Shown here one piece after another: positions 5,017 through 12,603 of a DNA stretch of 13,256 bases (position 1 is its first letter; every line of letters starts with the position of its first letter). The translations under genes were made by a program, and so were the position numbers. Source of the DNA: a virus; the UHGV virus genome UHGV-0086716. One strand, written 5' to 3'. The notes under the pieces were generated by a model, which was given only the letters and a program-made list of their open reading frames with translations, was not told the origin of the DNA and did no database searches.

Positions 5017-5391
5017 TTACTCCGCGATGCTGTTCAGTGCGCCGAGGCAAACAGCGGTCAGGCGCTGGATTTCCTGCGCGGTGGCTTCAGGGCTTGCCCG
5101 GCGGTGCGTAATGCGAAGACTGTCGGAAATGACTTCAATGAGCACCGACGACGGGCACTGACAGATGCAAACAACACTTGCAATGGTGTCTTCAATGCGG
5201 GAGAGCGTGTAATTGCCCTGGTTGCAGGCAAGCAGGTAGCGGCCGTCAATGACAGTCTGACCATCGGGAAGTTGTGGTGCTGTGGGTTGCAACTTCCTGT
5301 ACATCTCGAAGCGATGGGCAACGCGATCTCGTGTACCGGCGTCGCTTTCGGTCTGAATCAGGTAAGTTACAAAATCATCGATGAGAATCAT
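5017..5391 (-). CDS. Hypothetical protein (124 aa) immediately upstream of A
   Basis: ATG at 5391 with AGGAGG 9 nt upstream; protein-like composition; same strand as operon. Confidence 0.65.
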   Translation of the reverse strand: MILIDDFVTYLIQTESDAGTRDRVAHRFEMYRKLQPTAPQLPDGQTVIDGRYLLACNQGNYTLSRIEDTIASVVCICQCPSSVLIEVISDSLRITHRRASPEATAQEIQRLTAVCLGALNSIAE

Positions 5392-5463
5392 TGTGGCAAT
5401 CCTCCTGTTGCAGATGTGCGGAAGCCTCCCGCGTACAGATACGGGATAGCTTCCGGATGTGGT

Positions 5464-5685
5464 TTATCGGTGCTGGTTGATGAGGCTTTGCAGTTCTGCC
5501 AGATCTTCGGCGAGATAGCTGAAGACAGCAGCGCAGTAACGGTTTGATAGCGCGTGCGTGCGCTCATGCAGCATGTTGATGTGCATGATTTGCGCGACGC
5601 GTGTTGCGCGGAAAAGTCTGCGGTTGATTTCGCTGCGTATGTGAATACGCTCAGCGCGGGCGCGCTGTTGCTTGCGGTTTGCCAT
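5464..5685 (-). CDS. Small basic hypothetical protein (73 aa)
   Basis: ATG at 5685 with AGAGG upstream; arginine-rich N-terminus suggests nucleic-acid binding. Confidence 0.5.
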   Translation of the reverse strand: MANRKQQRARAERIHIRSEINRRLFRATRVAQIMHINMLHERTHALSNRYCAAVFSYLAEDLAELQSLINQHR

Positions 5686-5728
5686 GGTGTGGCCTCTGCG
5701 TTAGTAAGTTCTGAAAACTCACCATCCA

Positions 5729-5917
5729 GAGTTGAGAATCTCGGGGTGGCGAGACGTACGGGGTTCTCAACACCGGCTAACACAGGACCCGGCCCGACCG
5801 AAGTCGGCCCCGTACGCCCCGCCATAATTCTGACGCGAAAAAGACGTGGCGATACAGTACGCACAAAAAAACCGCTGGCGCGGCTGTGCGCTGTGTTAGT
5901 CAGCGGGTTGAGAATCC
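5729..5917. repeat. Structured non-coding island with GTTGAGAA(T/C)C repeats and nested perfect stems
   Basis: GTTGAGAATC at 5731-5740 and 5907-5916 (direct); inverse copy GTTCTCAAC at 5763-5771. Nested TCTCG/CGAGA (5739-5743 / 5750-5754). Perfect 9-bp stem CGTACGGGG / CCCCGTACG (5755-5763 / 5808-5816) enclosing CCGAC-cgaa-GTCGG (5794-5807). No ATG-initiated ORF with an RBS in this stretch. Confidence 0.45.
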
Positions 5918-5982
5918 CGGCACCCGTTTTATGAGGTGCAGCGGAAATGTAACCTGACTCAACGAGCGCTGGCAAGCGGTTT

Positions 5983-6010
5983 TTGTGTTGCGTGCTGAAG
6001 TATGTATAAT
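5983..6010 (+). promoter_or_regulatory. Sigma70-type promoter for the plus-strand embedded gene
   Basis: -35 TTGTGT (5983-5988), 16-bp spacer, -10 TATAAT (6005-6010) preceded by TG; about 60 nt upstream of the ATG at 6072. Confidence 0.5.
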
Positions 6011-6071
6011 CGCGGCGCAAAAATGGAATGCGCCGAAGGATAGCGGCGTTTATTAACAATGGAGGTTGTTT

Positions 6072-6539
6072 ATGCCTGTTGCTATGGAGCAAGCAGACAA
6101 GAAGATTTTTTTCCATCTGTGGTACAGCTACTGGCTGGAAGAGATGGTTTTCATACTCAGCAATAAAGCCGCTGCCGTGTTGCGCGCCGGGGCACTGATT
6201 GCTGCGGTATTCTCCTTTCTTCTCGTAGGTTTTCCCGTCCTGATGAGCCTTTGCGGGCTGGCGTTTTTTGTTTTTTCCTGGTTTTGCAGCAAGTGTGAAT
6301 TCGTCGCCGAACTGGCGTGCTGGCAGAAACAGAGCTACCTTCGTCTGATTACGCAAAGGGATTCCATGAGCACTGAACGCCTCATTGAGCGCATTCTGTA
6401 TCTGGAAGAAACGAACAGCGCATTCATGAAGGCGTTTGTCAGGCCTGCAAAAAACAAAGCGAGCGCATCTGTTGGTCTGTCTGCCAGCGAGCATTTGCGT
6501 TACTCCGAAAGGTTAATCTGCTGGTTGTGCGGCTTCTGA
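6072..6539 (+). CDS. Embedded plus-strand gene: predicted membrane protein (155 aa) with cytoplasmic C-terminal domain
   Basis: ATG at 6072 with GGAGG 6 nt upstream and own promoter. Two hydrophobic helices (AAAVLRAGALIAAVFSFLLVGFPVLM, SLCGLAFFVFSWF); codon usage looks enteric. Opposite strand to the surrounding operon; 3' end overlaps the DUF4406-like gene by 27 nt. Confidence 0.6.
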   Translation: MPVAMEQADKKIFFHLWYSYWLEEMVFILSNKAAAVLRAGALIAAVFSFLLVGFPVLMSLCGLAFFVFSWFCSKCEFVAELACWQKQSYLRLITQRDSMSTERLIERILYLEETNSAFMKAFVRPAKNKASASVGLSASEHLRYSERLICWLCGF

Positions 6540-7072: not shown

Positions 7073-7305
7073 TGCTGACCCCTTTGCCCGGCAGATTTCT
7101 CGTTGAGCTGCTTTTTAAGGGCGGCGATTTCACTTTCCTGATCCTGAATCACCCGGATTGCTTCCATGGTGATCCCCAGTGAGATCGAGGAAGATATAAC
7201 GACCTTTGGTTTTCCAACGGCAGCAGCAACTTTGGCTGTTTCCTCGTGTGCACGGGCGATGTGACGTAACCCCCGCAAAAGTGCTTTGTTTCTTTCGCTA
7301 TTCAT
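7069..7305 (-). CDS. Hypothetical protein (78 aa)
   Basis: ATG at 7305 with GGAG 7 nt upstream; helical, charged. Confidence 0.55.
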   Translation of the reverse strand: MNSERNKALLRGLRHIARAHEETAKVAAAVGKPKVVISSSISLGITMEAIRVIQDQESEIAALKKQLNEKSAGQRGQQ

Positions 7306-7394
7306 TTCCTGACTCCTGTGTTACTGATTCATCTGTTTATTCACGTACTGGCTGGGGTAAACATCACGCAGTAAGTTGCATCTCCCGTTACCGG

Positions 7395-8321
7395 TCAGCA
7401 GTCCGGACAGTAGCCACCGCCATGGCGACCGCATGGGTCGCACTGTTTCAGGGTGGCGATAACCTCCGGTGCGGGTTCGCTGGTTCTTGCGCCAACGCTT
7501 CTCGGTACCTGGATGCAGTTCATCCGGTATCCCCGATAAATGCGCCGTGTTTCCGGTGTGTCGGAATTGGAGATGGTGATGCTGGTCATGCCGCCCGTTT
7601 CCTGTGAAAGACGGTCAAGTGCCGCTCTCAGGCGAACGTGCTCGTGTTCATCGAATGGTTTTCCGTAGGCGGTGAAATTGTTCTTGCCACTGAATCGCAG
7701 GTAAGGGGGATCGCAGTACACGCAAAGCGTGTTGCCCATGCCGAACAGGTGACTGGCAGAGTTCAGCGTATCCTTAAAATCTGCGTGGATAAGCAGCGTT
7801 CGGGTGCTGTTTGCCTTGTCTGCAAATGCGCGGATTTCCCGCTCAGGGAAGTAGGGCTTGCGGTAGCAGCCGAAAGGCACGTTAAAGTCACCTTTTCCGT
7901 TCACGCGGAACAAACCGTTAAAGCTGTGTCGGTTCAGGTACAAAAACATGGCGGCCAGTCGCAGTTCACGGCGGTCGCTTATTCCCGTTCTGCTACTCAG
8001 GAAGGCATGATTCTCTGCGTTAAAGGTTTCGCGAATGATGAGATAGTCACCCCTGTTGTTGTGGTTCAGGAACAGGGTTTTCGCCTCGTCGATCAGGCTG
8101 TCGGTGTTGTCCCTGACTTGCCGGTAGAAATTGATCAGCGCACCATTGGAATCCCCCAGGATGTAGCGCTTGTAACTGGTGTTCATGAATACCGATGCGC
8201 CGCCCGCAAACGGCTCAACCAGGCAGTCTGCTTCTGGCAGATGCGCCTTCAGTGTGTTCATGATGCGGCTTTTTCCGCCCACCCATTTCAGCGGTGTGCC
8301 GGATAACAGCTCTTTGCTCAT
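7395..8321 (-). CDS. dam: DNA adenine methyltransferase (Dam-like), 308 aa, with short Cys-rich C-terminal tail
   Basis: KWVGGK, EPFAGGASVF (SAM-binding), FNVPFG, DPPY catalytic motif, NFTAY and ISNSDT all align with E. coli Dam as I recall it. AAGAGG RBS 7 nt upstream. Extra tail CDPCGRHGGGYCPDC. Confidence 0.9.
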   Translation of the reverse strand: MSKELLSGTPLKWVGGKSRIMNTLKAHLPEADCLVEPFAGGASVFMNTSYKRYILGDSNGALINFYRQVRDNTDSLIDEAKTLFLNHNNRGDYLIIRETFNAENHAFLSSRTGISDRRELRLAAMFLYLNRHSFNGLFRVNGKGDFNVPFGCYRKPYFPEREIRAFADKANSTRTLLIHADFKDTLNSASHLFGMGNTLCVYCDPPYLRFSGKNNFTAYGKPFDEHEHVRLRAALDRLSQETGGMTSITISNSDTPETRRIYRGYRMNCIQVPRSVGARTSEPAPEVIATLKQCDPCGRHGGGYCPDC

Positions 8322-8336
8322 AACGCGGCCTCTTTG

Positions 8337-8546
8337 TTATAGGTTTCGTGCGTTAATAAATCCCATGACGCCCCGTTGTTTTTGCTCAGCAGTCGCCAGC
8401 GAAAACCGATTCTTATTACCAGGTAGTCGTGGGGTTTTATGCGTGAAAAATTCCGCACGCCGTCGCGGAATAAACGCAGCGATGCGCGGGCTTTTCTTTC
8501 CACGTTCAGGGGGGGGGCAGCAACACACATTCAGGATGGCGACCAT
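8337..8546 (-). CDS. Possible small leader ORF (69 aa) containing the C9 tract; coding status doubtful
   Basis: ATG at 8546 with GAGG upstream, but the product is proline/arginine-rich and not obviously globular. The alternate frame (8318..8530) ends in an ATGA overlap with the dam start. Confidence 0.3.
   Translation of the reverse strand: MVAILNVCCCPPPERGKKSPRIAAFIPRRRAEFFTHKTPRLPGNKNRFSLATAEQKQRGVMGFINARNL
8509..8517. repeat. G9 homopolymer (C9 on the coding strand) in the leader/small ORF upstream of dam
   Basis: Nine consecutive G at 8509-8517, inside the 234-bp interval between the exonuclease stop and the dam start, within codons 10-13 of a small ORF (8337..8546, minus). Confidence 0.9.
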
Positions 8547-8555
8547 AGCTTCACC

Positions 8556-9137
8556 TCATATGCTCAGGAATGGCGTTGTGAAGCGCTGCCAGATTTCTGA
8601 CACGACCTTTGCCTGGTAAATGGCATCGCCCAGTGCAGTGTGAGCAATGGTCTCTTTGCCTGATCGGCCTGGCATTCTCCAGCCGGAGGACTTAGCCATG
8701 TCGATAAGCGGACGCATACAGCGCTCGTTCCAGTAACACCACGGAATACTTTTTTCTCCGGCCGTGCGCTTTATGGCGGATCTCAGGATTGGGAAGTCAA
8801 AGTATGCACCCTTGCACCATACGGTCAGTGCCTTGCCCAGGGTTTCGTCTTGCATGTTGCGCGAAATGAACGCCAGAAATTCGGTTACTGCCGCAAGTTC
8901 TGTTCCCTCTGCGTTGAGCAGGCAGGCTCTGGCCTCCACGGATTGACCGGCCCACCATATGGCGGTTGATGCATTGACGGTTCCGCCGTTGCGCTCTGAA
9001 TCCACCGGGTCGATGTATTTCTCAAACTGCTTACCCAGCTTTCCGGTGAACGGGTCGAAAAACACCGCGCCGATCGCGAATATGACTGCGTCCGGTCCGG
9101 TGCCCAGTGTTTCGGTGTCAATCATGAGATGGTTCAT
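8556..9137 (-). CDS. DEDDh-type 3'-5' exonuclease (DnaQ-like fold), 193 aa
   Basis: Exo I motif MIDTETLG near the N-terminus and Exo III-like HTALGDAIY near the C-terminus. ATG at 9137 overlaps the upstream stop (ATGA); alternative start at 9125. Confidence 0.8.
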   Translation of the reverse strand: MNHLMIDTETLGTGPDAVIFAIGAVFFDPFTGKLGKQFEKYIDPVDSERNGGTVNASTAIWWAGQSVEARACLLNAEGTELAAVTEFLAFISRNMQDETLGKALTVWCKGAYFDFPILRSAIKRTAGEKSIPWCYWNERCMRPLIDMAKSSGWRMPGRSGKETIAHTALGDAIYQAKVVSEIWQRFTTPFLSI

Positions 9138-9367
9138 TGTGCGGACCCCTTCAGTTCTGTGTTGTTCGTGAGCGTTGCAATCAGTCGTTCAATGGCTGAA
9201 CAGGTTTCCAGCGGGGAGGTGTGCTTCTCTTTCGCCGTGTTAACCAGGTCTCGCAGTAATTCGCAGATATGCGCACGTTCGGCTTTTCTTGCGGTCATGC
9301 TGATGTGTGCATGTGGCTGTTCTGGTCTGGCGGTTATTTCTCTGCTTGGTGATTCGGCAGTTCTCAT
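9134..9367 (-). CDS. Hypothetical protein (77 aa)
   Basis: Start re-called to ATG at 9367 (GGAG 7 nt upstream); the track's TTG at 9391 is less likely. Confidence 0.5.
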   Translation of the reverse strand: MRTAESPSREITARPEQPHAHISMTARKAERAHICELLRDLVNTAKEKHTSPLETCSAIERLIATLTNNTELKGSAQ

Positions 9368-9581
9368 TTGTTGACTCCTGAAAAAAGACAAAGGGAAGCC
9401 GAAGGCATGAATGCCTTAATTAATTGCTTGTGTGTTTTCTGGTGTTATTCCGCGCCTGCTTTCGGCTTCAGATTATCCCCAGATTCTTCAGCGCTAACCA
9501 TATAAGCGCGCACACCTGAAATACCAACCATGCAGTGGCGATATTCAGTATTGTTTTCACGTGCTTCATAAGCTTTTCGCT

Positions 9582-11610: not shown

Positions 11611-12603
11611 ATGTCGATTAAGCAACTCAAAGACGGGCGTTATAAGGTTGATGTAAGGCCGCAAGGGGCGGAAGGAAAGCGGATCCGTAAGATTTTTACC
11701 CTGAAGTCAAAGGCACAGGAGTTTGAAAGGTATGTTTTGCAGAATTTCCACGATAAACCGTGGCAGGCCAAGCCAGCTGATCAGCGTCGGTTATCCGAAC
11801 TGATAGATGCCTGGTGGGTGCTTGATGGTCGGAATCAGCCTTACGGGGATACTTACAGGGTCAGGCTGGAAAAAATAAACCGTGAGATGAGGGACCCCCG
11901 CGCCAGTGAGATGACGCGAAAGTTTATGCTCGGGTATCGTTCAGATAAATTACAGGCCGGATTAATGCCCTCCAGTGTTAATCGTGATTTGTGCGCCTTG
12001 TCTGCAATGTTTACCGCGCTGATTGATGCGGAGGTTTTCCATAATGAAAACCCGGTGCGTGGAATACGTAAGCTCAAGGTCAGGAATACAGAAATGGCCT
12101 TTCTTTCAGATGATGAGATTGATCGGCTCCTTGAGCGACTCGAGGGTGATGCGCGTCGCGTTGCTGTTCTGTGTCTTTCCACTGGCGCAAGGTGGGGGGA
12201 AGCGGCTGGTTTGCGTGGTGAGCATATCGTTGGTAACCGCGTAATGTTCTTTAACACAAAGAATGGAAAATCCCGCGCAGTTCCTGTTTCTGATACGGTG
12301 CTTTCGTTGATAAAAACCCGAAAAACTGGGCTATTGTACCAGGCTGATTACATCCGTTTTCGGGAGATCCTTCAGGAGGTGAAGCCGGACTTGCCGAAAG
12401 GGCAGGCCACCCATGTCATGCGTCATACATTCGCTACACATTTCATGATGAATGGCGGAAATATCGTTACGCTACAACGAATCCTGGGCCATGCCACGAT
12501 TCAACAAACGATGACGTATGCGCATTTTTCGCCGGACTTTTTACAGGATGCAATCAGCTTTAATCCGCTGGCTGAAAGTGTCCATAAACTGTCCATCGAT
12601 TAG
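11611..12603 (+). CDS. int: Tyrosine integrase, P2 Int-like (330 aa)
   Basis: GGAGGGG RBS 6 nt upstream. Catalytic-region pattern LCLSTGARWGEAA, HVMRHTFATHFMMNGGNIVTLQRILGH, TMTYAHF (R...HxxR...Y). Last phage gene before host DNA. Confidence 0.92.
   Translation: MSIKQLKDGRYKVDVRPQGAEGKRIRKIFTLKSKAQEFERYVLQNFHDKPWQAKPADQRRLSELIDAWWVLDGRNQPYGDTYRVRLEKINREMRDPRASEMTRKFMLGYRSDKLQAGLMPSSVNRDLCALSAMFTALIDAEVFHNENPVRGIRKLKVRNTEMAFLSDDEIDRLLERLEGDARRVAVLCLSTGARWGEAAGLRGEHIVGNRVMFFNTKNGKSRAVPVSDTVLSLIKTRKTGLLYQADYIRFREILQEVKPDLPKGQATHVMRHTFATHFMMNGGNIVTLQRILGHATIQQTMTYAHFSPDFLQDAISFNPLAESVHKLSID

Follow-up and report, generated by a model that had tools for sequence, protein, structure and literature searches.

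A length-variable poly-C tract in the 5′ end of a ParE-like gene in the early operon of a P2/186-like Escherichia coli prophage

Results

The window analyzed here is the whole 13,256-nucleotide stretch of the virus genome UHGV-0086716, which corresponds to the ENA contig ERZ827464 NODE_4280_length_13256_cov_2.97 from a SPAdes metagenome assembly at approximately 3× coverage. In an E. coli prophage of P2/186-like (Peduoviridae) type, the gene of interest lies in the early lytic operon, a context that includes an integrase, an HTH repressor, a Cox/CII-type regulator, DUF4761, DUF4754, the exonuclease, the ParE-like gene, dam, DUF4406, and the GPA replication nickase. On the minus strand, a Rv2179c-like 3′-5′ exonuclease gene (193 aa, 8556..9137) is followed in the same tightly packed operon by the ParE-like gene (PF24732/phrog_1525; 8318..8546) and by dam (308 aa, 7395..8321), which encodes a D12-class N6-adenine methyltransferase. 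The exonuclease stop codon (TGA, 8558..8556) is overlapped by a Shine-Dalgarno sequence, GAGGTGA (8551..8557, minus strand), that is present in 29/29 loci of the comparative set described below and is separated by a 4-nt spacer (AGCT) from the ATG of the ParE-like gene (8546..8544). Then come a homopolymer of nine C's (8509..8517, minus strand; G9 on the plus strand), a TAA (8339..8337), the Shine-Dalgarno sequence of dam itself, AAGAGG (8329..8334, minus strand; 7 nt 5′ of the start codon), and the dam ATG at 8321.

A preliminary description of this DNA had placed the C9 tract in codons 10 to 13 of a small ORF with a ribosome-binding site between the exonuclease gene and dam, and the sequence agrees: the run begins at the third position of codon 10 and ends at the second position of codon 13. 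That ORF (69 aa, 8337..8546, minus strand) consists of 12 genuine codons followed by out-of-frame read-through to the TAA and ends, as had been stated, 16 nt before the dam ATG. The conserved ParE-like frame starts with codons 1 to 12 from ATG 8546, resumes at 8509, and ends at TGA 8320..8318, overlapping the dam start as ATGA, such that the window carries an allele frameshifted by one C relative to the in-frame length of C8. The outcomes predicted in that description for other lengths also hold, since C8 gives the frame that ends in the ATGA overlap and C10 meets a TGA directly after the tract, as does C7, and all of these are seen in real relatives.

Further potential start codons surround the tract. 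An internal ATG lacking a Shine-Dalgarno sequence (8528..8530, minus strand) is in the ParE-like frame at C9 and is the start of a 70-aa PGAP annotation, and a GTG (Val15 of the ParE-like frame; 8501..8503, minus strand) lies 2 nt past the TGA of C7 and C10 alleles, where it is a possible re-initiation codon. The sequence directly 5′ of the tract, ATGTGTGTTG (8521..8530, minus strand), offers starts in all three frames (ATG 8530, GTG 8528, GTG 8526, and TTG 8523), and pipelines therefore call an ORF for the ParE-like protein whatever the length of the tract (75, 70, or 68 aa). Such a run is only slightly surprising in DNA of this base composition: 0.27 C8 matches would be expected per window, and the two overlapping matches observed were equaled or exceeded in 11 of 200 shuffles.

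Elsewhere in the window, Rfam matches at gathering level identified a C4 antisense RNA (RF01695; 5742..5829, minus strand; 77.8 bits) and the Hfq-binding RNA isrK (RF01394; 5865..5939, minus strand; 62.3 bits), which are followed by a 73-aa ORF (5464..5685, minus strand) matching the Pfam family PF25738, “Derepression.” Together, these look like a P1 immI/isrK-type antirepressor module controlled by antisense RNA in a P2-like prophage. A 368-aa ORF (5388..6494, minus strand) spans both small RNA genes; a Pfam search with it gave no match, and its only matches were to PHROG “transcriptional regulator” families, over residues 164 to 293. The gene caller of the collection instead has an antisense 155-aa ORF (6066..6539, plus strand) with no family. 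The 368-aa ORF is probably spurious, and the PHROG families that it matches may themselves consist of ORFs called across C4/isrK RNA genes. At the prophage edge, just past the 3′ end of the integrase gene (11611..12603, plus strand), there is a full-length match (122 bits) to the enterobacterial small RNA STnc130 (RF02084; 12678..12812, minus strand). No RNA family in Rfam matched at the poly-C locus.

Translated from the C8 version, the region encodes a 75-aa protein that matches the Pfam family PF24732, ParE_like (E = 1e−17; 64.3 to 64.6 bits against a cutoff of 24.4), over the full 67-position profile, beginning right behind the tract, and phrog_1525 (E = 5.5e−27). The 69-aa C9 ORF matched no family in Pfam and NCBIfam profile searches. 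The frame ending in ATGA is the real coding frame. The preliminary description had treated the small ORF as a leader and this frame as an alternative to it; that view was abandoned, as the ORF in the window is a small, conserved toxin-like gene of phages in frameshifted form and not a leader peptide. More than 130 homologues, mostly of 75 aa, were found across Enterobacterales (Klebsiella, Enterobacter, Citrobacter, Salmonella, Pantoea, Serratia, Hafnia, and others). By tblastn, the family occurs in 60 phage records, in every one of which it is annotated as a hypothetical protein, and a megablast search of phage GenBank records returned no match, i.e., no named phage is ≥85% identical at the locus. 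Our literature search found no paper on PF24732 or on the C tract.

None of the canonical Pfam models for ParE, RelE, and HigB match the ParE_like family, no solved chain was matched in a sequence search of PDB chains, and the protein had no PADLOC or NCBIfam match. A first AlphaFold2 model, from a 30-sequence alignment, was poor (pLDDT of 58, with no significant Foldseek match) and was replaced by one built from a 71-sequence alignment. This predicted structure supports a RelE/ParE fold, which is defined by one or more helices lying on an antiparallel sheet of 3 to 4 strands. Compared with type II toxins of that fold (HigB, RelE, YafQ, YoeB, and ParE; PDB 7nbu, 2khe, 4q2u, and 5czf), which have 85 to 120 aa, the protein is shorter and lacks a canonical Pfam match, a solved-chain match, and an evident adjacent antitoxin; it is also encoded within a phage early operon, with an exonuclease gene and a methylase gene on either side. 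No antitoxin was annotated or matched among the direct neighbors, namely, the exonuclease and dam genes and, in relatives, a 64-aa ORF or dcm.

The same family occupies the same region of Peduoviridae early-operon modules in the Salmonella phages SW3/SI7 and the Klebsiella phage ST16-OXA48phi5.4, with which the window shares a site between cox/cII-type regulators and the replication gene and ATGA-type overlaps; these phages differ from it in having no homopolymer at the site, and their neighboring genes vary. Klebsiella relatives have the order exonuclease, ParE_like, 64-aa ORF, dam, and Salmonella phage SW3 (L058; MK972714.1, 1518..3648) has dam, ParE_like, dcm, with the ParE_like gene overlapping both methylase genes. 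An obligate link between the family and methylases, suggested by SW3, was rejected; it is contradicted by ESSI2_ev239, where the exonuclease and ParE_like genes are followed by a primase gene and no methylase gene, and by Sortsne and fHe-Yen8-01, which have no methylase near the ParE_like gene. In these gene orders, a methylase is a recurrent but not a universal neighbor. The Dam protein of the window has 308 aa, compared with 326 aa (981 nt) in the E. coli relatives L001 to L003 and L031.

To compare tract lengths, we compiled 29 loci, which include the window and L029 (the same contig as the window), from a flank-anchored pattern scan of IMG/VR and a metagenome collection and from exact-protein look-ups. 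The tract was C8 in 17 loci, C9 in 7, C7 in 4, and C10 in 1. Complete E. coli genomes carry copies 91 to 95% identical to the window locus, and in 22 complete E. coli genomes the lengths implied by the spans of a 91-nt query were C8 (16 genomes), C9 (3), and C7 (3). Three E. coli genomes that are identical across the gene have C9, C8, and C7, respectively, and PGAP gives each another “protein.” In a collection of 15 billion proteins, the C8 product was found on at least 1000 contigs and a variant of it with one changed residue on a further 160; the C7 product on about 100; and the C9 products (the PGAP form of 70 aa and a cluster of out-of-frame forms of 69 aa) on roughly 300. Other protein forms imply C10 (1 contig), C12 (4 contigs), and C6 (2 contigs). 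Many of the contigs behind these protein counts are Illumina assemblies. Only exact-sequence counts were used for this collection. In the 90% cluster to which the 75-aa ParE-like proteins belong, the representative is a 193-aa exonuclease and many members are exonuclease sequences, an odd grouping that makes cluster-level counts unreliable for this family.

Several haplotypes with identical flanks, over 1.4 to 2.2 kb, differ at the tract only. The window (C9) and L026 (C8) are identical from −806 to +1072 around the tract, L001 (C9) and L013 (C7) from −843 to +1377, L003 (C7) and L023 (C8) from −620 to +891, and L009 (C8) and L014 (C10) over at least −921 to +516. When the tract was masked, a single gene haplotype was seen to combine with C7, C8, and C9, a second with C8 and C10, and that of the window with both C8 and C9. 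Fitch parsimony on a neighbor-joining tree of 885 nt of flanking sequence gave 9 changes (10 if steps are ordered and the root is C8), and a conservative manual count gave at least seven independent tract changes. The other A/T homopolymers of 6 to 7 nt within 3 kb are invariant in the same loci. When off-frame loci were restored to C8, 13/13 gave an intact protein with no second frameshift or stop. Downstream of the tract, the window has 67 to 68 differences from L025/L026, most of them starting more than 1 kb away, and this suggests mosaic exchange beyond dam. The comparison across related prophages thus bears out a length-variable, slippage-type tract, as had been proposed: it is not invariant but ranges from C7 to C10 as read, with C6 and C12 implied, often on otherwise identical haplotypes. 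Judged from these alleles, single-C gains and losses have been repeated and recent in the phage lineage and are shown to leave a heritable, predicted ON/OFF polymorphism of the ParE-like gene.

The run itself is confined to one sublineage of E. coli phages, and tract conservation across the family was not found. None of 12 homologous loci of other species or genera has a homopolymer of ≥6 nt at the site, and all are single frame; in the rest of the family, including the Klebsiella, Enterobacter, Salmonella, and Serratia homologues, the residues CSAPL are encoded without a run. Among close sisters, E. coli 2013C-3033 has an interrupted run, CCGCCCCACCC, and others have CCG plus C8, of which one member (L057) has C7 and is frameshifted. 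These patterns indicate that the tract is not a conserved regulatory device but a lineage-specific and, by all appearances, strongly hypermutable site. In E. coli, indel rates rise exponentially with the length of homopolymer runs (PMC8510543), an effect that the hypermutable tract fits. Clonal sets of complete genomes (SW0716xx, G1/2-G6/7-G8, and UCPROB) are all uniformly C8, and the haplotype of the window has C9 in several assemblies and is apparently stable; switching is therefore not fast at the consensus level.

At approximately 3× coverage in a SPAdes metagenome, a homopolymer miscall in the window would be plausible. However, C9 is likewise present in an independent assembly (ERZ28639171 scaffold_546, L028) that matches the window without a difference over 6.5 kb, and in the protein collection the exact 69-aa out-of-frame product occurs on 6 contigs and the exact 308-aa Dam protein on 5, mostly with the same neighboring proteins. 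We consequently take C9 as the true inherited state of this haplotype. Some assemblies are from long reads or are of low coverage, and a minority of the individual length calls could therefore be wrong. ED1a was considered as a Sanger-quality witness for C9 and set aside; the 62-aa protein annotated there comes from an ORF called in the wrong frame on an apparent C8 allele.

Discussion

We favor, as the more probable explanation, a replication-slippage hotspot in the 5′ end of the ParE-like gene that produces contingency-type ON/OFF expression of the ParE-like protein. Slipped-strand replication would add or remove C's there. At C8, ribosomes starting at the ATG with the Shine-Dalgarno sequence would read through into the full ParE-like protein (ON). 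At C9, as in the window, they would make the 69-aa nonsense product, and the allele would be OFF or strongly reduced, with possible leakage to the ParE-like domain through the internal ATG 8530 or through rare +1 slippage on CCC-C. At C7 or C10, translation would end just past the tract, and a possible leak route would be re-initiation at GTG 8503, 2 nt after the stop. It can be shown from the reading frames that tract length would decide translation of the ParE-like protein from its only Shine-Dalgarno-supported ATG. We infer that the length changes are reversible, in which case they would generate ON/OFF heterogeneity among phages and lysogens, the behavior of a contingency locus.

At the sequence level, the locus appears to behave like the poly-G/C contingency loci of Neisseria, Haemophilus, and Campylobacter (PMC5084427). 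As in those systems, a G/C run is found within a few dozen nucleotides of the start of an ORF, ±1 changes in its length toggle the frame, related genomes differ only at the run, and the ORF of OFF alleles is intact downstream; the features by which simple sequence repeat contingency loci are recognized (a repeat in the 5′ part of the ORF, length polymorphism between identical flanks, and an OFF frame that is otherwise intact) are all present. Several features set it apart from those systems: E. coli is a mismatch-repair-proficient host in which such a mechanism is hardly used; the tract is short (mode of 8) and restricted to one phage sublineage; the gene affected belongs to the early genes of a phage and has no surface or lipooligosaccharide (LOS) counterpart's place; and clonal sets look stable.

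A strong rival, which we regard as possible though clearly the less probable, is that slippage here runs one way. The run (TGC CCC CCC CTG) would then be an accident of codon choice, slips would knock out a dispensable or harmful toxin-like gene, and off alleles would be young pseudogenes with no adaptive or reversible role. The restriction of the tract to one sublineage and its lack in the wider family are in keeping with this, as are the modal C8 with variants mostly of ±1, the invariant clonal genome sets, and the clonal stability and wide distribution of off alleles (P0055, for example, is on 201 contigs). The narrow length distribution around the in-frame C8 also fits purifying selection against slightly deleterious slips. 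Against one-way decay, the downstream frame is open and unchanged in all 13 off-frame loci, at least seven events fall on near-identical haplotypes, which implies either very recent origin or frequent reversion, and lengths range from 6 to 12.

Going beyond hotspot behavior, the locus might be a phage-borne contingency locus in the full sense, in which poly-C slippage stochastically switches an early protein of RelE/ParE fold as a bet-hedge against host defenses; this we offer as speculation and consider unlikely. Every burst or lysogen population would then mix ON and OFF phages, and host defenses would sense the module or be countered by it. Lengths of 3n+1 may also lower co-transcribed Dam via polarity or lost coupling. 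Slippage could rise during lytic growth, since overmethylation by phage Dam would remove the hemimethylated signal needed by MutH-directed repair; overproduction of Dam has an established mutator effect.

Less likely still is the model of the preliminary description, in which the tract lies in a leader ORF, its length tunes translational coupling to dam, and the methyltransferase is phase variable in the manner of a phasevarion. Some of its premises stand: tract length genuinely varies, translation stops at the ATGA overlap (C8), 16 nt upstream (C9), or approximately 190 nt upstream (C7/C10) of dam, and lost coupling or Rho-dependent polarity on dam is conceivable in C7/C10 alleles. However, the ORF codes for a conserved folded protein and not a leader, and dam has its own AAGAGG 7 nt before its ATG, with no significant fold that would occlude it (z-score of −1.0 relative to shuffled sequences, 27 of 200 of which folded equally well). 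Both C8 and C9, about 85% of alleles, bring ribosomes to ≤16 nt of the dam start, and only C7 and C10 leave approximately 190 nt untranslated before it. Nor are the two genes constant neighbors, given the 64-aa gene between them in Klebsiella and the phages in which no methylase is adjacent.

The proposed epigenetic switch fares no better. The operon is an early lytic one that is repressed, and we found no promoter-like site on the gene strand from 7300 to 9500 and no promoter- or terminator-like site between the exonuclease, ParE-like, and dam genes. Poly-C tracts act as promoter spacers in Bordetella fim and Neisseria opc. A model of this kind, with the tract between the −35 and −10 elements, was rejected here; no promoter-like site was found from 7300 to 9500, and the flanking hexamers are poor by eye. 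E. coli Dam (2g1p; E = 1.6e−51) is the closest match of the enzyme, which also matches PADLOC “orphan methyltransferase” models, and the host already has a GATC Dam. With a dam-positive host and a repressed operon, an epigenetic switch of the host is not expected. The locus shares with phasevarions (type III mod and type I hsdS) a repeat tract close to a methyltransferase gene in the same operon, yet the tract here lies in the upstream gene, approximately 190 nt from the dam ATG, and not in a methyltransferase ORF or promoter, and the methylase, an orphan enzyme of Dam type, has a ribosome-binding site of its own; being outside the methylase gene, the tract does not make this a phasevarion. 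An effect of tract length on dam is thus unsupported, and any such effect would probably be secondary and small.

Programmed recoding, by which the C run would be slippery for a ribosomal +1 frameshift or for RNA polymerase and the C9 allele would be expressed by design, seems to us very improbable. The 9-nt run is about the length of an RNA:DNA hybrid, and all C9 alleles keep an intact downstream frame. In addition, E. coli tRNA-Pro is documented to be prone to +1 shifts at CCC-C (PMC4519876, PMC7577736). Yet the arrangement that requires a frameshift is not conserved, with an in-frame C8 majority and no run in other genera, which argues against a programmed-frameshift gene; C7 alleles would need the opposite shift, and no stimulatory Shine-Dalgarno-like element or structure was seen.

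Least credible is an artifact, the preliminary description's own alternative, in which lengths were miscalled in the window or its relatives and biological variation is absent: for all the 2.97 k-mer coverage of the window contig, the error-proneness of G/C 9-mers, and the long-read assemblies among variant genomes (e.g., NCTC9112), C9 recurs in an independent assembly that is identical across 6.5 kb, variants are carried by Illumina/SPAdes contigs at 9 to 70× coverage and, as exact recurrent proteins, by hundreds of NCBI and Logan assemblies, C12 and C6 alleles occur, the off-frame share of approximately a quarter to 40% of samples is well beyond consensus error rates, and the remaining homopolymers show no variation.

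On the evidence of the alleles compared here, the tract is real and recurrently slipping, in an uncharacterized phage gene of predicted toxin fold. For annotation, this means that three or four proteins are called according to tract length (75, 70, 69, and 68 aa), as “ParE family toxin-like” or “hypothetical,” and that the 69-aa ORF of the window is a frameshift artifact. If switching is fast and reversible, the locus would count among the rare examples of phase variation by repeats in E. coli, unusual also in being borne by a temperate phage and in acting on a toxin-fold protein beside a methylase. If so, experiments could approach the function of the PF24732 family through ON and OFF alleles that already occur in nature.
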